The notes: generated from the letters alone by a model not told the origin. A DNA stretch of 46,501 nt from Candidatus Magasanikiibacteriota bacterium (GCA_016234265.1 JACRFW010000027.1:1-46501), one strand, 5' to 3'. Positions 2,879-21,046 are shown, counted from the stretch's first letter. Made by a program: numbers and translations.

Positions 2879-4789
2879 TTATTTCTTGTCCTTATCATCA
2901 ACGACCTCACCCTCAATTGGACCTTGGTCTTTTGGCGCTTCGCCGCCTGGAGCGGCACCTGGCTGTGGGCCTTTAGCCTGTTCTTGTTGGTACATCTTCA
3001 TGCCGACAACTTGCGCGGCCTTGGAGAGCGCTTCGGAGGTGGTCTTGATCGCTTCCACATCATCTTTGTCTTTTACTTCTTTCACTTTGGTGAGCGCGTC
3101 GTTCACCGCTTTTTTCTCGTCATCGGTCACGGTGATCTTTTTCTCTTCCACGTCTTTCATCATTTTTTCCGTGGTGTAGACCATAGTGTCGGCGATATTT
3201 TTCGCTTCAATGAGCTCTTGTTTCTTTTTGTCGTCTTCGGCGTGCATCTCGGCGTCTTTCTTCATCTTTTCAATTTCATCTTTAGACAAACCAGAGGAAG
3301 ACTCAATCTTGATGGACTGTTCTTTGTTGGTGGCCTTGTCTTTGGCCTTCACATGCAAAATGCCGTTGGCATCTATATCAAAAGAAACCTCAATTTGCGG
3401 CACGCCGCGCGGGGCCGGTGGAATGCCGGACAAATCAAATTGACCGAGAAGTTTATTATCATTGAACATTGGCCGCTCCCCTTGCGCCACCCGGATAGAC
3501 ACAGCGGGCTGATTGTCGGCAGCAGTGGAGAAAGTCTGGCTCTTGGAGGTCGGGATGGTGGTGTTGCGTTCAATAAGCTTGGTCATGACAGCACCCATGG
3601 TCTCAATACCGAGCGACAGCGGAGTAACGTCCAAGAGAAGCACGTCTTTCACATCGCCCTTCAAGACACCGCCCTGCACGGCCGCGCCAACAGCGACCAC
3701 CTCATCGGGGTTCACGGTGATATTCGGCTTTTTGCCAAAATATTTTTCCACCATGTTGTACACCAGCGGCATGCGCGTCATTCCCCCCACCATCACCACT
3801 TCATTGATCTGACTAGTGGAAAGTTTGGCATCGGCGAGAGCCTGTTTCACCGGGCCCATAGTTTTATCCACTAAATCACCAACTAATTTTTCGAGGTCAG
3901 AGCGTTTCATCTTGAGCACCAAATGGCGCGGGCCATTGGCGTCGGAAGTGATGAAAGGCTGATTGATTTCGGTTTCTTGCGAAGTGGACAGTTCAATCTT
4001 GGCTTTTTCCGCCGCTTCTTTAATGCGCTGGAGCGCAAGTTTATCTTTGCCCAAGTCAACCCCGTCAGTCTTTTTAAATTCATCAATAATCCACTGCATG
4101 ATGCGCTGGTCAAAATCGTCGCCGCCGAGGTGGGTATCGCCGTTCGTGGCCAATACCTGCACGGAATCGGCGCTCACTTCCAGCACGGACACGTCAAACG
4201 TGCCGCCGCCGAGGTCGTAGACCATAATTTTTTCGTCTTTTTTCTTATCAAAGCCATATGCGAGCGCGGCGGCGGTCGGTTCATTAATAATGCGGAGCAC
4301 TTTCAAACCGGCAATTTCACCGGCGTCCTTGGTGGCCTGGCGCTGGGAGTCGTCAAAATATGCCGGCACGGTGATCACCGCTTCGGTAATTTTTTCGCCG
4401 AGGCGCTCTTCAGCATCGGCTTTCATTTTCTGCAAAATCATGGCCGAAATTTCCTGCGGTGATTTCTCTTCACCATTGAGAACCACCTTCACTCCGTCGC
4501 CCGCGCGTACAATCTTGTACGGCATCACTTTCAAATCGCGTTGCACCTCGGCATCATCCCACTTGCGGCCAATCAGGCGCTTGATGGAATAGAGCGTATT
4601 TTCCGGATTAGTAACTGACTGGCGCTTGGCCAGCTGCCCCACCAATCGCTCGCCGGTCTTGCTCACCGCGACGATGGAGGGCGTGGTGCGCGCGCCTTCT
4701 TTATTTTCCAACACCTTGGGCTGTCCGCCTTCAATGATGGCGACACAGGAATTGGTGGTTCCGAGGTCGATTCCGAGTACTTTGCTCAT
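2879..4789 (-). CDS. dnaK: Molecular chaperone DnaK (Hsp70)
   Basis: Hsp70 signatures [16 protein letters not shown] and [10 protein letters not shown] over a full-length 636 aa. Confidence 0.97.
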
Positions 4790-14910: not shown

Positions 14911-15615
14911 TTACTGACGAACCGCCACCTCAAGAACGGTGGCGCGAAATTGTTCGGCAATAGCCTCCATCTCCCCCGCAGAGAATGCCCGATAACTAGC
15001 GAACGCCGGATTCAGCGTGGTGGCCGGGCGGAATTGCTGCAAAAAAACACAGCGTGCCCCCGCGAGTTCTTTCACCATCTGTTCAATCAGTATAGCAGAA
15101 TGGAGCTCTTTCACCAAGGTAACGCGAAACTCATAGCCAATGCCGCTTTGTTTAATGAGTTCCACTGTTTCCTTAATCTTCACCCGGGAAGCCAAAGCGC
15201 CCGCTAGCGCCTGGTATTCACTCAGGCTTGTTTTGTAATCCATGGCAATATAGTCAAGGCTGCCCGCGGAGAGAGCGGCGGCGACCACCTCGGGCCGGTT
15301 GCCATTGGTATCCAGCTTCACCGCAAACCCGCGCCGTTTAATTTCGCCCAAAAATGGCACCAGATCGTGGTGCATGGTCGGCTCGCCGCCGGTCACCACC
15401 ACCCCCTCCAAAAGCCCCCGCCGTTCGTCTAAAAAACGAAAAACAGCTTCAGTGGGGATAAAGCTGTCTTTCATCTTAGCCAAAAGCTCGGGCAGAACAA
15501 ACTCCGGGTTGTGGCAATAGCCGCAGCGAAAATTGCACCCGGCGGTAAAAACGATGGCGGCGCTTTTGCCCGGGTAATCAAGCATGGTGAATGGCTGGAC
15601 GCCGGAGATAAGCAT
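14911..15615 (-). CDS. nrdG: Anaerobic ribonucleoside-triphosphate reductase activating protein (radical SAM)
   Basis: CNFRCGYCHNPE radical-SAM cysteine motif. It lies next to nrdD. Confidence 0.9.
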   Translation of the reverse strand: MLISGVQPFTMLDYPGKSAAIVFTAGCNFRCGYCHNPEFVLPELLAKMKDSFIPTEAVFRFLDERRGLLEGVVVTGGEPTMHHDLVPFLGEIKRRGFAVKLDTNGNRPEVVAAALSAGSLDYIAMDYKTSLSEYQALAGALASRVKIKETVELIKQSGIGYEFRVTLVKELHSAILIEQMVKELAGARCVFLQQFRPATTLNPAFASYRAFSAGEMEAIAEQFRATVLEVAVRQ

Positions 15616-15638: not shown

Positions 15639-15848
15639 TTACGCCGTCGCGGTGTTGGACGAAGTTGGCGTGAAAGCGGCGTAGTGTTTAATAAAGCGCG
15701 AGTTGGCAGCTTGGCACTCGGTGAAATGTTTACGGCTATAGTGTTCGCTTTTTTTACCGATATTAAAATGCGATACGGGCCGGTGGTAGCCCATCACACG
15801 CGTCCAGACTTCGCACCGAGTTCTTTGTTTTTGTTGGGTTGGTTCCAT
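15639..15848 (-). CDS. Stand-alone glycyl-radical segment of class III ribonucleotide reductase (NrdD C-terminal module)
   Basis: TRVMGYHRPVSHFNIGKKSEHYSRKHF matches the NrdD glycyl-radical consensus (RVxGY...N.GK..E...R). It is a separate ORF in a different frame, 35 nt after the nrdD stop. Confidence 0.7.
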   Translation of the reverse strand: MEPTQQKQRTRCEVWTRVMGYHRPVSHFNIGKKSEHYSRKHFTECQAANSRFIKHYAAFTPTSSNTATA

Positions 15849-15886
15849 ACAACAAAATAAAATTAAAAATTAAAAATGAATACTTC

Positions 15887-18007
15887 TTAACGGGCGGCGG
15901 CCGGGCTCGCGTGTTTTAGCCGGATAACCTGGTCGTAGCGCACGGCCCCCTCAAGGCCGAGCTCAGAATCACACTTCGGGCACCAGTCCCATTCCCCCGC
16001 CAGATACCCGTGCTTCGGGCAAATGGAAAATGTCGGGGTGATGGTGATGTAGGGCAGACGGAAATTGGAAAGAATGGTACGCACCAAGTTGCGGCAGCTC
16101 ACTCCATCGGAAACGCGCTCGTTCAAATAGCAATGCAGCACCGTGCCGCCGGTATAACGAGTCTGCAGACTGTCTTGCAGCTGAAGCGCCTCAAACACGT
16201 CGTCGGTATAGCCGACCGGCAGCTGCGAGGAATTGGTGTAGTAGGGCGCCTCCACGGTGCCAGCCTGGAGAATATCAGGGAAACGCTTCCGGTCTTCTTT
16301 GGCAAACCGGTAGGTGGTGCCCTCCGCCGGCGTCGCTTCCAGGTTGTACAGATTTTTTGTTTCTTCCTGATAGGTTTGCAGCCGCGCGCGCATGAAATCA
16401 AGTACTTCGCGCGCAAACTGCTGGCCGAAAGGCGTGGCAATGTCTTCAAGGTCGCCCGTGAAGTTACGGATCGCTTCATTAATGCCGTTCACGCCGATGG
16501 TGGAAAAATGATTTTTGAGGTAGCCGAGGTAACGCTTGGTATAGGGGAAAAGCCCGCGGTCAATCCACTTTTGAATTTCTTTGCGTTTGATCTCCAGCGA
16601 CACCTGCGCCAGATCCATGAGATACTCCAGACGTTTATAGAACCCCTCATGGTCGCCTTTGTGCTGGTAGCCAATACGCGCGGCGTTGATGGTGACCACC
16701 CCCACCGAGCCGGTCATCTCGGCCGAGCCAAAGAGCCCGCCGCCGCGCTTCTTCAGCTCTTTTAAATCCAATTGCAGACGGCAACACATGCTGCGCACGT
16801 CGCCCGGATTCAGGTCGGAATTAATAAAATTCTGAAAATAGGGCGTGCCATATTTGGCGGTCATCTCAAAGAGCGGCAGGTTTTTCGGATTGTCCCAGTC
16901 AAAATCTTTGGTGATATTGTAGGTAGGAATCGGAAACGTAAACGTGCGCCCCTTGGCGTCGCCCGCGATCATGACATCAATGAACGCTTTATTAATCACA
17001 TCCATTTCCGACTGCAGCTCGCCGAAGGTGAACGCAAATTCCTTTCCGCCCAGCAGGAGACGTTTATCTTTCAAATCTTCAGGTACTATCCAATCCAGGG
17101 TGATGTTGGTGAAGGGCGTCTGCGTGCCCCAGCGAGACGGAATGTTCAAATTGAAAACGAACGATTGCATGTTCTGGTAGACATACCCGTACACTTTGCG
17201 CGCGATATAGTCTTCCTTCTGCTCTGCGCTTCCAAATGTTATGCCCTCGGTAGCGATATCAGCCCGGAGCTCCAGTTCAAACTTTTTTACGAACGGCGCC
17301 AAGTAGGTATCAAAACTGGAAAAGGCCTGGGCGCCGGCCCATTCGTTCTGGAGTGTGCCTAAAAAATTCACCATCTGCGCCACGGCGCTGGACAGATGTT
17401 TCGGAGCTCCGGACTCAATTTTATCCGGCACGCCATTAAACCCTTCTTCCAGAAGCGCGCGCAGACTCCAACCGGCGCAATAGCCGGAAAACACGTCCAG
17501 GTCGTGAATATGCACATCAGCGTTGCGGTGCGCGTCGCCGACATATTTGGGGTAGGCCTGCTCCAGCCAGTAGTTGGCTATCACCTTGCCGGAGGTGTTC
17601 AAAATCATGCCGCCGAGCGAATAACCCTGGTTGGAGTTGGCATTCACCCGCCAATCCATCTGATAGAGATACTCGGCAATGGTTTTTTGCACTTCCACCA
17701 CGATATTTTTGCCGGTGCGGGACTCGGCGCGTTTCGCCCGGTAGAGAATATAAGCCTTGGCGGCCTCGGCCAAACCGCGCTTGATCAGGGTCTTCTCCAC
17801 AATATCCTGAATACTCTCCACGTTCGGCACGGCATCGGAAAACTGCGCGTCCACCGCCGCTATGACATCGCTGGTAACTGAACGCGCCAGCGCCACATGG
17901 CCCTCCTGCCCCACCGCCGAGAGCGCGCTCTCTATCGCCTGTTCAATTCGGAACGGAGTAAAATCAACCACGGCGCCGGTACGTTTTTGCACCTTTGCGA
18001 TAGGCAT
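15887..18007 (-). CDS. nrdD: Anaerobic ribonucleoside-triphosphate reductase NrdD (catalytic body, lacking the glycyl-radical tail)
   Basis: N-terminal ATP-cone, the class III active-site region (CCRLQLD...), and a C-terminal zinc ribbon CPKHG...CPKCD. There is no RVxGY motif before the stop. Confidence 0.93.
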   Translation of the reverse strand: MPIAKVQKRTGAVVDFTPFRIEQAIESALSAVGQEGHVALARSVTSDVIAAVDAQFSDAVPNVESIQDIVEKTLIKRGLAEAAKAYILYRAKRAESRTGKNIVVEVQKTIAEYLYQMDWRVNANSNQGYSLGGMILNTSGKVIANYWLEQAYPKYVGDAHRNADVHIHDLDVFSGYCAGWSLRALLEEGFNGVPDKIESGAPKHLSSAVAQMVNFLGTLQNEWAGAQAFSSFDTYLAPFVKKFELELRADIATEGITFGSAEQKEDYIARKVYGYVYQNMQSFVFNLNIPSRWGTQTPFTNITLDWIVPEDLKDKRLLLGGKEFAFTFGELQSEMDVINKAFIDVMIAGDAKGRTFTFPIPTYNITKDFDWDNPKNLPLFEMTAKYGTPYFQNFINSDLNPGDVRSMCCRLQLDLKELKKRGGGLFGSAEMTGSVGVVTINAARIGYQHKGDHEGFYKRLEYLMDLAQVSLEIKRKEIQKWIDRGLFPYTKRYLGYLKNHFSTIGVNGINEAIRNFTGDLEDIATPFGQQFAREVLDFMRARLQTYQEETKNLYNLEATPAEGTTYRFAKEDRKRFPDILQAGTVEAPYYTNSSQLPVGYTDDVFEALQLQDSLQTRYTGGTVLHCYLNERVSDGVSCRNLVRTILSNFRLPYITITPTFSICPKHGYLAGEWDWCPKCDSELGLEGAVRYDQVIRLKHASPAAAR

Positions 18008-18832: not shown

Positions 18833-20359
18833 ATGCAATCGCCAACCAGAAAACAGAAGGAGGTTTTGGATTTTATAACTTCTTACATAAATAAGCACAG
18901 CATATCCCCCACCATTGAGGAAGTGGCGAGGCGCCTTAAACGCGCGATTGGCACAATACACGAACATATGGAAGAACTGGCGGAAAAGGGATTAATCAAA
19001 AAAAATAATTCTGCTCGTGGTGTTGAAGTTGTGCAAAATGATAGTTTAATCAAAATACCATTACTCGGAACCATAGCGGCGGGTCAGCCCATAGAAGCAA
19101 TTAAAGAAAGAGAGGCCATAGCCGTACCCCAAAGTAAACTGCCTAACTCCGGTAATTTCTATGCCCTGAAAGTAGTCGGTAATAGCATGACTGAAGAGAA
19201 TATCAACGATGGCGACGTTGTGCTAGTCAAACAGCAGAGCGCAGCTGATAACGGACAAAGGGTTGTGGCCTTAATTGATAATTACGAAACTACATTAAAA
19301 AAAATGTACAAAGAAAAAAGGCATATCAGGCTGCAACCGGCCAACAAAACAATGAGCCCCATAATTATTTCTAGACAAACTCCGTTCGCGATACAAGGCA
19401 TCGTGATTGATGTGATAAAAAATGATGAGAATGCCTTTTTAGAAGAACCAATTACATCAAGAAAAATCAAAAGAAATACTGCGCTGCCTTTAAACCAAAT
19501 TATTTTAAATGATGCAACTGAAGAGCTACGGAAGCTTCCGAATGAAAGTTGCGATGTCGTCATAATTGATCCACCATATAATATCGGCAAGGATTTTGGA
19601 AACAACATTGATAAACGAGAGCTGAACGAATACATCGCATGGTGCAAAGAATGGATCGGCGAAAGTATCCGAACAATGAAACCGACGGGGACAATGTTTA
19701 TTTACGGTTTCAGTGAAATTCTTGCTCATCTTTCTGTTGAAATCCCCATAAACAAACGCTGGCTTATCTGGCACTACACAAATAAAAATGTCGCCTCTCT
19801 TAATTTTTGGCAGAGAAGCCATGAAGCAATTATCTGTGCCTGGAAAGATAAGCCGGTTTTCAATAGAGACGAGGTCAGAGAGCCATACACGGAAGGATTT
19901 TTGAACGGGGCGGCTGGTAAAATAAGAAAAGGAACAGTTGGTAGATTTAGCAAGGGTGGATTAGAAACTATCTACAAGGCGCACGAGGGCGGCGCTTTGC
20001 CAAGAGATGTTATAAAAATACCAGCCCTGGCTGGAGGGGCTGGTATGAATGAAAGGTGGTTTATTTGTAAAACTTGCGGAGGAAATATTTTTGAGCCGAG
20101 AGAACTTAAAAAACACATCGACCACAAAATTATTAAACACCCGACACAAAAACCGCTGGAGCTATGTAGGAAATTGATCAGATCATCGGCGCCCAAGAAA
20201 GATGGGGTGGTTCTAGTGCCTTTTGTCGGCACAGGAGCCGAATGCGCGGCCGCAAAAGAATTAAATCAAAACTATATCGGTTTTGAGATTAATCCTGACT
20301 ATGTGAAGATCGCTGAAAAAACCATTTCTTCTGTAAAGGTGACACCAAAATTATTTTAG
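18833..20359 (+). CDS. Fusion protein: LexA-like repressor (winged HTH plus S24 self-cleaving peptidase) fused to a beta-class N6A/N4C DNA methyltransferase
   Basis: N-terminus: HTH, the Ala-Gly cleavage site GTIAAGQPIEA, the Ser in GNSM and the Lys in TLKKMY. C-terminus: DPPY (motif IV) in VVIIDPPYNIG, HPTQKP, and FxGxG (motif I) in PFVGTGAECAAAKEL. It is a single uninterrupted ORF. Confidence 0.85.
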   Translation: MQSPTRKQKEVLDFITSYINKHSISPTIEEVARRLKRAIGTIHEHMEELAEKGLIKKNNSARGVEVVQNDSLIKIPLLGTIAAGQPIEAIKEREAIAVPQSKLPNSGNFYALKVVGNSMTEENINDGDVVLVKQQSAADNGQRVVALIDNYETTLKKMYKEKRHIRLQPANKTMSPIIISRQTPFAIQGIVIDVIKNDENAFLEEPITSRKIKRNTALPLNQIILNDATEELRKLPNESCDVVIIDPPYNIGKDFGNNIDKRELNEYIAWCKEWIGESIRTMKPTGTMFIYGFSEILAHLSVEIPINKRWLIWHYTNKNVASLNFWQRSHEAIICAWKDKPVFNRDEVREPYTEGFLNGAAGKIRKGTVGRFSKGGLETIYKAHEGGALPRDVIKIPALAGGAGMNERWFICKTCGGNIFEPRELKKHIDHKIIKHPTQKPLELCRKLIRSSAPKKDGVVLVPFVGTGAECAAAKELNQNYIGFEINPDYVKIAEKTISSVKVTPKLF

Positions 20360-21046
20360 TCCGGCGTCAATCTCTTTTTTCTTGGCCTCAAAAATATGAG
20401 GAGTGAAAACAACAAAACCATTCGGAAGTCTCCTTAGCTCCTTATTATCTTGGAATCTCTTGTACGGCAATTTAAATTCCCCGTTCTTCTTCTTTGGATT
20501 TTTGAAGTAATCGCCGCTCGGAACCTCATACTTAATGTCCACAAACTCCCCTGGTAGCGGATTTTTTGATTTGGGTTTTTCCTGTCGCACCTCTCTGCCA
20601 AGAGATTTCTTCTTAACCTGATAATTTAAAATTTTACCCAGATATTTGACTTGAAAGTCAGCTCCTTTGTGATCAAGCTCACCAGACATCTCTACTGTTC
20701 CATCACCAAAAACGGATTCGGCAACGTACCCAGCGTGAATTTGCGTAATGATGCTCGCCCATGTTCTGTAAATTCTTGCAGGCAAACCTTTACCAAAACA
20801 TGTTTTGCACATCCCAGTTTTTTCTTGAAAGTTACTAATCTCTTTCTTATATTCTTGCAAATATTCCTCGTAAAACTTTTCGAAACTCAAAAATTTCTTC
20901 TTTTCCCAATATACCTTGTACAGCATATTGATAGCTTGAATCTCCTTGGGCAAGTCCATTTCCACAATTTTAATAGACCGATATTTGTCACGGTAGGCCT
21001 CCAGATCAACCGACTGTAAAAAATTCCCAAATTCACCTAATAACAT
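20351..21046 (-). CDS. Hypothetical protein, possibly a PD-(D/E)xK restriction endonuclease partner of the adjacent methyltransferase
   Basis: Convergent with the MTase, overlapping its 3' end by 9 nt. It carries a GD...x10...DHK arrangement (FGDGTVEMSGELDHK). No other homology is recognisable by eye. Confidence 0.5.
   Translation of the reverse strand: MLLGEFGNFLQSVDLEAYRDKYRSIKIVEMDLPKEIQAINMLYKVYWEKKKFLSFEKFYEEYLQEYKKEISNFQEKTGMCKTCFGKGLPARIYRTWASIITQIHAGYVAESVFGDGTVEMSGELDHKGADFQVKYLGKILNYQVKKKSLGREVRQEKPKSKNPLPGEFVDIKYEVPSGDYFKNPKKKNGEFKLPYKRFQDNKELRRLPNGFVVFTPHIFEAKKKEIDAGLK

Follow-up and report, generated by a model that had tools for sequence, protein, structure and literature searches.

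A split class III ribonucleotide reductase: nrdD interrupted after its zinc ribbon, with the predicted glycyl-radical site encoded by a separate small gene next to nrdG

To our knowledge, the glycyl-radical enzymes described so far all carry the radical glycine on their catalytic chain. What, then, is to be made of a locus in which the two are encoded apart? In a stretch of 46,501 nucleotides (nt) from a Candidatus Magasanikiibacteriota bacterium (GCA_016234265.1 JACRFW010000027.1:1-46501), hereafter the window, the nrdD gene for a class III ribonucleotide reductase stops just after its zinc ribbon, and a typical NrdD glycyl-radical segment is found in a separate open reading frame (ORF) of 69 amino acids (aa), annotated as a 'hypothetical protein' in the source contig, which belongs to a Candidatus Magasanikbacteria metagenome-assembled genome (MAG). 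The gene could be broken, it could be rejoined during expression, or the small ORF could encode a subunit that brings the radical site to the larger chain. Here we argue that the split is genuine and that the last of these readings is the one to be preferred. On the minus strand the order is nrdD body, a 38-nt spacer, the 69-aa ORF, 23 nt, and nrdG, with the following features:

15887..18007, minus strand: nrdD body, 706 aa; catalytic chain of the class III ribonucleotide reductase, lacking the glycyl-radical loop.
17726..17995, minus strand: N-terminal ATP-cone of the body, residues 5-94 (PF03477, expectation value (E) 2.5e-17), the allosteric activity domain.
16778..16789, minus strand: MCCR finger-loop motif of the body, residues 407-410, with the catalytic cysteines; read from the translation, the NrdDh4 variant of the SCCR motif.
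15971..16021, minus strand: zinc ribbon CPKH...CPKC of the body, residues 663-679; no other conserved element comes after it.
15890..15967, minus strand: C-terminal tail of the body, 26 aa, SELGLEGAVRYDQVIRLKHASPAAAR; a possible docking element.
15849..15886, minus strand: intergenic spacer, 38 nt, 87% A+T; untranslated leader of the small ORF.
15639..15848, minus strand: predicted small subunit gene, encoding a 69-aa stand-alone glycyl-radical protein; matches NRDD positions 532-562 and has 5122 homologous clusters.
15723..15824, minus strand: conserved core of the small protein, RTRCEVWTRVMGYHRPVSHFNIGKKSEHYSRKHF, residues 9-42; 27 invariant columns among 27 sequences.
15786..15800, minus strand: RVMGY glycyl-radical motif; Gly20 is the predicted radical site, and G20 and Y21 are invariant.
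14911..15615, minus strand: nrdG, a radical S-adenosylmethionine (radical-SAM) activase of 234 aa; TIGR02495 (NrdG2), 23 nt downstream of the small ORF.

From its gene content and order, this locus reads as a three-gene class III ribonucleotide reductase operon, made of the nrdD body, a small subunit gene and nrdG. When we scanned it for promoters and terminators, no promoter-like site was found in the operon and no terminator-like site in the spacer between the body and the small ORF.

The body matches the Pfam family NRDD (PF13597) over positions 2-530 of 562 (E 9.7e-171), the NCBIfam equivalog PRK08270 with 1065 bits (cut-off 548; best stretch at positions 243-651 of 684) and TIGR02487 with 444 bits (cut-off 326). 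In our alignment, residues C408, C409 and R410 are invariant, as are C663 and C676 of the zinc ribbon. The chain ends with CPKHGYLAGEWDWCPKCD followed by the 26 residues SELGLEGAVRYDQVIRLKHASPAAAR, and its alignment to the Prevotella copri NrdD (8p23) stops exactly at its CPKCGS; the mapping of the body onto a solved structure rests on this end of the zinc-ribbon alignment and on the profile coordinates. The initial, sequence-only reading of the window had described a 706-aa NrdD that ends 26 aa past the zinc ribbon and lacks RVxGY. The translation bears this out: a search of the 706-aa body found no R[VIT]xGY glycyl-radical motif. Of the features that make up a class III NrdD, the barrel, the zinc ribbon and the adjoining NrdG are thus all found at this locus, and the RVxGY motif is absent from the barrel polypeptide.

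The small ORF matches the complementary part of the same models. Indeed, it aligns only to positions 532-562 of 562 in NRDD (E 1.5e-7, above the gathering score) and only to positions 649-682 of 684 in PRK08270. With the small ORF confined to this last part of NRDD and PRK08270, the body and the small ORF are collinear halves of one family model; the RVMGY of the small ORF is also collinear with the RVMGY of a fused homologue (locus L080). Its NCBIfam matches are to NrdD equivalogs only, and NRDD is its sole Pfam hit at E<=0.01, with no match to Gly_radical (PF01228). The earlier description of the 69-aa ORF as an NrdD glycyl-radical segment in another frame is therefore upheld by its frame and by these profile matches. 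The third gene scores 183 bits against TIGR02495 (NrdG2; cut-off 131).

The SCCR/MCCR motif defines the NrdDh group (Aurelius et al.), in which MCCR corresponds to NrdDh4, and the group takes in the thioredoxin-using enzyme of N. bacilliformis, NrdDh3 (PMC4493059). Judged by its MCCR motif between strands E and F, the body belongs to the NrdDh group as an NrdDh4 variant.

Split genes are a common artefact in MAGs, and the window comes from one. The true gene could then be one continuous nrdD, hidden by a sequencing or assembly error or by a recent inactivating mutation. Within the window, the junction itself speaks against this: all three frames hold stop codons and the frame of the small ORF is closed 8 codons upstream of its ATG, so that a single indel cannot fuse the two ORFs, in line with the initial reading. 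The AT-rich spacer was also correctly said to hold stops, which we find in every frame, and only its length, given as 35 nt, has to be corrected to 38 nt (15849..15886).

Comparison with other genomes is more telling. A scan of one genome per species returned at least 588 loci, and we examined the best 80. In 79 of them a body, a short stop-to-stop glycyl-radical ORF and nrdG directly adjoin one another, and the bodies end just past the zinc ribbon. The alignment of related nrdD loci, which the sequence-only reading had put forward as a check, thus finds the split conserved in 79 of the 80, and agrees with its view that this is no obvious one-nucleotide sequencing error. The split hosts labelled as Patescibacteria include Magasanik-, Uhr-, Moran-, Nomura-, Gracili- and Peribacteria, and some Patescibacteria-like split loci bear other record labels. 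Other hosts are Pseudomonas, Stutzerimonas, Billgrantia/Halomonas (Halomonadaceae), Alloalcanivorax, Thiobacillus, Thiothrix, Thiocapsa, Omnitrophota and Thermoflexus. The exact small proteins of the Pseudomonas, Alloalcanivorax and Billgrantia loci are present in RefSeq, with 49-63 aa, from complete chromosomes of cultured organisms, and are named there 'anaerobic ribonucleoside-triphosphate reductase' or 'oxidoreductase'. The sole fused locus among the best 80 is L080, from the actinobacterium Occultella. It reads CPRC-AAADPDAPPVV-CEVWTRVMGYHRPV, with an 11-residue linker in the position that tail, stop, spacer and leader take up in the split forms.

The small ORF is itself conserved. Its homologues at E<=0.001 fall into 5122 protein clusters, the best 120 of which all measure 55-80 aa. 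An alignment of 27 of these proteins shows a variable leader starting with Met, the near-invariant core RTRCEVWTRVMGYHRPVSHFNIGKKSEHYSRKHF and a variable tail. In the 34 codons of the core, nonsynonymous differences (pN) are about 0.05-0.26 (mean 0.17) against a saturated synonymous value (pS) of about 0.9; since pN is far below pS, the small ORF must be under strong purifying selection. The split is far beyond what chance would give, in view of the E-values of the profile matches and of homologous stand-alone small ORFs that number in the thousands. The same split in independent genomes, among them complete chromosomes of cultured Pseudomonas, the presence of its own ATG in 86 of 87 split loci, the purifying selection and the impossibility of a one-indel repair leave the error reading with a negligible probability. 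The comparative data refute it: nrdD truly breaks off past the zinc ribbon, the glycyl-radical segment has a gene of its own, and neither an assembly error nor a pseudogene accounts for the split.

The ends that face each other across the split vary among hosts. In Patescibacteria the body tail has 25-29 aa, is alignable in most loci and carries the motif ELGxxGERYDxxYRKxYxS, and the small protein has a C-terminal extension, ECxAANxxFxxxY. In Proteobacteria the body tail and the extension are both short, and the body tail differs. The lengths of tail and extension are correlated (Spearman 0.49), a value confounded by shared ancestry.

A genuine split in the DNA might still be mended during expression. 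Programmed recoding (a frameshift, readthrough or ribosomal bypass of the kind known from T4 gene 60), removal of a small intron from the RNA or protein trans-splicing would each join the two ORFs into one chain, and intervening elements are common in nrdD: a group I intron interrupts the nrdD of T4, and inteins are frequent in NrdD genes, as read from the many cluster representatives of 800-1900 aa. We examined the geometry of the junction in 87 split loci. The body ends in TGA in 37, TAA in 36 and TAG in 14 of them; the small ORF starts in relative frame 0, 1 or 2 in 24, 27 and 36 loci, respectively; and the spacer has a median length of 32 nt, with extremes of -29 and 394 nt. A joining device would have to cope with three stops, with all three frames in roughly equal use and with a spacer of such varied length. 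Furthermore, the start codon of the small ORF is ATG in all but one of the 87, and in Proteobacteria it is preceded at 6-8 nt by a canonical AAGGAG. In the window, the small ORF follows an AT-rich leader. This is normal here, as AT-rich starts devoid of a Shine-Dalgarno sequence prevail: only 6 of 30 long genes have a Shine-Dalgarno match in a lenient test, in a genome of about 50% G+C, and most start codons, that of the body gene included, follow AT-rich tracts.

The junction gave no match to Rfam at a permissive threshold, and its RNA folds no better than shuffled sequence (z 0.22). The spacer of 38 nt is far below the size of a group I or group II intron, and the body tail of 26 aa plus the leader of about 9 aa make about 35 residues, short of a split intein. 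Neither a split intein nor an intron can therefore be recognised. Variable frame, stop and spacer, the ATG, the AAGGAG and the lack of RNA structure all disfavour recoding, an intron or a split intein, and we regard the joining of the two ORFs as very improbable. On this sequence evidence, the small ORF is translated separately, from its own ATG.

How often did the split arise? We built a neighbour-joining tree from the barrel columns of 97 dereplicated loci whose state was verified from the DNA (59 split, 38 fused). Only two changes of state are needed on it. All split loci fall in one clade, which holds Patescibacteria, Proteobacteria, Omnitrophota and some phages, together with one nested fused group. 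This group, made up of Occultella and phage loci, still has the CEVWTRVMGY signature, and a re-fusion is its probable origin.

Among the best 150 representatives of 50%-identity clusters of body relatives, 102 have no glycine motif within their 90 C-terminal residues, a figure that includes some truncated or frameshifted products and about nine proteins with the motif ahead of a C-terminal thioredoxin-like domain. Four fused NrdDs (P0203, P0214, P0244 and P0260) have such a thioredoxin/glutaredoxin-like domain, of CPNC type, after the glycyl-radical loop, and the same post-loop domain is seen in phage loci L215, L220, L222, L226, L229, L231, L234 and L240; it may represent a built-in reductant partner. 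Many close NrdD bodies (P0196-P0345) are 800-1900 aa long and match the query in 3-6 stretches, which we read as frequent inteins in this NrdD clade. In a further subgroup of bodies (P0213, P0215, P0226, P0227, P0240, P0246, P0252 and the body of L225), the second CxxC is replaced by CPYPHTEE(E/D)LxxFG. These bodies end without a glycine motif, and in L225 such a motif is found about 1.4 kb downstream.

How would two separately made chains work as one reductase? The body would provide the ATP-cone, the barrel, the finger loop and the zinc ribbon, and the small ORF the glycyl-radical loop of roughly 35 residues, Gly20 included. In enzymes of the glycyl-radical type, the loop with the glycine lies deep in the barrel, by the catalytic cysteine, and must swing out to meet the activase (PMC13450708). 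In the split system, NrdG would abstract the glycine hydrogen from the free small protein, and the charged protein would then sit in the body barrel beside Cys408/409, in the place taken by the C-terminal loop in single-chain enzymes. The outcome would be a heteromeric class III reductase with its radical on a separate subunit. Given the collinearity of the two halves and the conservation of the locus, we consider it very probable that the radical site is supplied in trans in this way; the chains are predicted to assemble in trans and the free peptide to be activated, and cheap replacement after oxygen cleavage may be one benefit. As the body itself lacks a glycyl-radical loop, the small protein would be obligatory and not a spare.

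Pseudomonas aeruginosa offers a link to genetics. In the one assembly that we examined, GCA_002136435.1 (L244, 1430-4342), NrdD has 675 aa, ends in ...CPKCDEELLQRSTPKSCCGGCGG and carries no glycine motif. It is followed by a 43-nt spacer with AAGGAG and by a 48-aa ORF (WP_086340034.1) that overlaps nrdG by 4 nt. Loci of the P. citronellolis group (L241-L243) are split as in P. aeruginosa. Deletion of nrdD in strain PAO1 strongly reduces anaerobic growth unless B12 is supplied, and cloned nrdDG complements the defect (PMC4860495). These genetics are indirect evidence that a split-type locus works in vivo. The same study calls the class II enzyme of P. aeruginosa exceptionally 'splitted' and treats class III simply as nrdDG (PMC4860495).

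The split enzyme has much in common with the single-chain NrdD/NrdG systems of T4, E. coli, Thermotoga maritima and Prevotella copri. These match the same profiles (PF13597, TIGR02487 and PRK08270) and have the same ATP-cone, barrel, finger loop, zinc ribbon, RVxGY motif and adjoining radical-SAM activase. However, in the single-chain NrdDs described, the loop is the C-terminus of the catalytic chain, whereas here it is a separate product, with the break between the second zinc-ribbon CxxC and the loop.

The closest functional parallel is found in GrcA/YfiD of E. coli and Y06I of T4 which, like the small ORF, are small stand-alone glycyl-radical proteins, with phage copies on both sides (PMC13450708). 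For GrcA/YfiD and the small protein alike, the cognate activase would presumably install the radical, and each would presumably work in trans with a large barrel protein. However, GrcA/YfiD belongs to PF01228 and the small ORF to PF13597, with no homology at the family level; GrcA is a spare for a pyruvate formate-lyase that has its own domain, whereas the body here has none; and GrcA comprises a whole domain of 127 aa, whereas the core here is of about 35 aa, the zinc ribbon is left on the body and the partner is a reductase instead of a formate-lyase. The small protein is thus no member of the GrcA/YfiD family, as it neither matches PF01228 nor replaces part of a self-sufficient partner; the functional analogy drawn in the initial reading is reasonable, although only inferred.

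Other reductases show separate parts of their own. In the class II enzyme NrdJa/NrdJb of P. aeruginosa, the reductase chain is likewise cut near its C-terminus into two adjacent, cooperating genes, in organisms that also have the split nrdD (PMC4860495, PMC9669993), but it is of the adenosylcobalamin class, and NrdJb bears zinc-finger and IscU-like domains, not a radical site (PMC9669993). In class I reductases the stable radical also resides on a smaller, separate subunit that docks on the catalytic one. There, however, a tyrosyl radical or metal cofactor is held by a ferritin-like protein and transferred over a long range, while here a short peptide would enter the barrel, and the two are not homologous. 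Broken reductase genes that yield a working enzyme are known from the NrdA-a/NrdA-b 'genes in pieces' of phage Aeh1 and from phage nrdD genes with introns or inteins (PMC3653736). Those breaks are sporadic and stem from a homing endonuclease, an intron or an intein, whereas the one described here involves no mobile element and has one fixed position throughout a clade.

We found no description of a split class III NrdD in the open-access literature, where we covered reductase phylogeny and extensions, RNRdb, the T. maritima and P. copri structures, a survey of phage reductases, P. aeruginosa reductase genetics, and reviews on GrcA and on glycyl-radical enzymes; the open-access papers on P. aeruginosa reductases that we consulted give class III as nrdDG only. 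According to a 2021 paper on spare parts and a June 2026 review, spare-part proteins are known for pyruvate formate-lyase only, and whether stand-alone glycyl-radical proteins exist for other glycyl-radical enzymes is, according to that review, still to be determined (PMC13450708). Both pieces of the split enzyme are already in the databases as separate annotations and have apparently gone unrecognised as a two-subunit reductase.

Several points weigh against a working two-subunit enzyme, or against parts of the case made for it. Its assembly, activation and activity are all deduced from sequence. Neither the sequence of the small protein nor its profile retrieved anything from the PDB, even at E 1-10. 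AlphaFold2, run on the small protein alone with a 27-sequence alignment, gave a mean predicted local distance difference test score (pLDDT) of 61, with the glycine loop below 50, and a predicted template modelling score (pTM) of 0.28, a confidence so low that the model is too poor to confirm the fold. The single-origin tree is a crude neighbour-joining tree, and 22 changes of state are needed when 150 cluster representatives of unverified state are added to it. The link to PAO1 genetics is itself indirect, because the split was seen in GCA_002136435.1 and not in PAO1, and an earlier description may exist beyond the open-access literature.

The poor model of the small protein, and split enzymes known only as sequences, would also suit a class III reductase that is decaying or non-functional, with the small ORF kept for some other task, such as a decoy or a regulator of NrdG. 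We hold this to be very unlikely: the body reaches 1065 bits against the equivalog model with its catalytic motifs all intact, the three-gene order is kept across phyla, the core of the small ORF is nearly invariant, and the P. aeruginosa nrdD locus, split in GCA_002136435.1, is needed for anaerobic growth without B12 (PMC4860495).

If the two chains do form an enzyme, is their separation of any use? Oxygen cleaves the polypeptide chain at a glycyl radical. In the split enzyme such cleavage would destroy only a small peptide that can be made again, a plausible advantage that fits the many facultative hosts and the copies in phages described below. The small protein could then be a diffusible, exchangeable radical cartridge, charged by NrdG off the enzyme, plugged into the body and replaced after oxygen cleavage; we put this forward tentatively, as something short of an even case. 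A neutral fission is a possibility of somewhat lower standing: the split would be real and functional, and the two chains would form a permanent complex with no role in exchange, repair or regulation. The linker that holds the split point is indeed variable (in the fused L080 it has 11 aa), the nested fused group suggests that re-fusion is tolerated, and NrdJa/NrdJb of P. aeruginosa offers an accepted precedent, a split that works and for which no further role is established (PMC9669993). Neutrality sits less well with the persistence of the split state across a large and old clade, and with two further observations.

The first is the coupling of the small gene to the activase gene and not to the body. 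In 76 bacterial loci, the median distance from the stop of the small ORF to the start of nrdG is 15.5 nt; the two overlap in 23 of the 76, mostly by ATGA, and are 0-30 nt apart in another 20, as in the window with its 23 nt. By this measure, the small ORF is often translationally coupled to nrdG, and its linkage is closer with nrdG than with the body.

The second is the presence in phages of the small gene by itself, which is difficult to account for unless its product works with a body that was translated separately. IMG/VR holds 275 viral loci that code for a relative of the small protein. The best 80 of these (L081-L160) are all short stand-alone ORFs, and in 78 of the 80 no body and no nrdG could be detected within 4 kb. 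The orphan of L108 (about 3950-4165) is flanked by portal and prohead protease genes (Pfam), those of L146 and L117 adjoin a Mu-type and an SU10-type portal gene, respectively, and that of L116 has a family A DNA polymerase gene nearby. In L129, a predicted lysis-type module, read from the ORFs, is followed by the small gene (3971-4144) and a predicted integrase. The position of this last orphan led us to consider that phage copies are attachment-site duplications of the host gene, an idea that we rejected as a general explanation, since the others lie near portal, prohead protease or DNA polymerase genes. The phage family phrog_4132, listed as of 'unknown function', is matched by the small protein of the window, by three phage orphans and by the P. 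aeruginosa small protein. The INPHARED collection of cultured phages holds no close relative of the small protein, which leaves IMG/VR contigs and phrog_4132 as the only sources of the phage orphans. As to the NrdD bodies encoded by phages, 58 of 80 are fused and 15 of 80 split. Orphans in phages would be expected if the small protein can serve a body made separately, and exchangeability is thereby suggested, though only indirectly.

Cysteine-rich tails occur in some partners of the split system: SCCGGCGG in the P. aeruginosa body, GCGCSK in Omnitrophota small proteins (L060, L062 and L074) and KKCCCRK-type tails in phage orphans L104-L140. They are reminiscent of the cysteine shuttles at the C-terminus of class I and class II reductases; the proteins of the window have no such tails.

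Elsewhere in the window, a 508-aa protein (18833-20359, plus strand) combines a LexA DNA-binding domain and an S24 peptidase with an N6/N4 DNA methylase. A TaqI-family restriction endonuclease gene (20351-21046, minus strand) converges on it with a 9-nt overlap. The pair looks like a restriction-modification system whose methylase is fused to a LexA-like self-cleaving repressor module.

The split nrdD has consequences for annotation and for experiments. The family phrog_4132 could become an NrdD-type glycyl-radical peptide, and heterologous expression of 'nrdD plus nrdG' from organisms with a split locus would fail if the small ORF were omitted. Genetic tests could start at once, since P. aeruginosa, P. 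stutzeri and strains of the P. fluorescens group all have the split. A natural reductase with a radical peptide of 48-80 residues would allow a direct test of the spare-part question beyond pyruvate formate-lyase, and the small protein would be a minimal natural substrate for studying how a glycyl radical is installed without the large 'flip-out' of a tethered domain.

Should the small protein prove to be a replaceable cartridge, about 50-70 residues would be lost at each oxygen hit instead of about 700, and NrdG would be spared the extraction of a tethered domain from the barrel. Phages would then bring only their own cartridge gene and boost the deoxyribonucleotide (dNTP) synthesis of the host at low oxygen. 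It would be the first spare-part-like system beyond pyruvate formate-lyase, and the normal state in Patescibacteria and in facultative anaerobes of the Pseudomonas type. The split may explain how facultative anaerobes can afford an oxygen-sensitive reductase.

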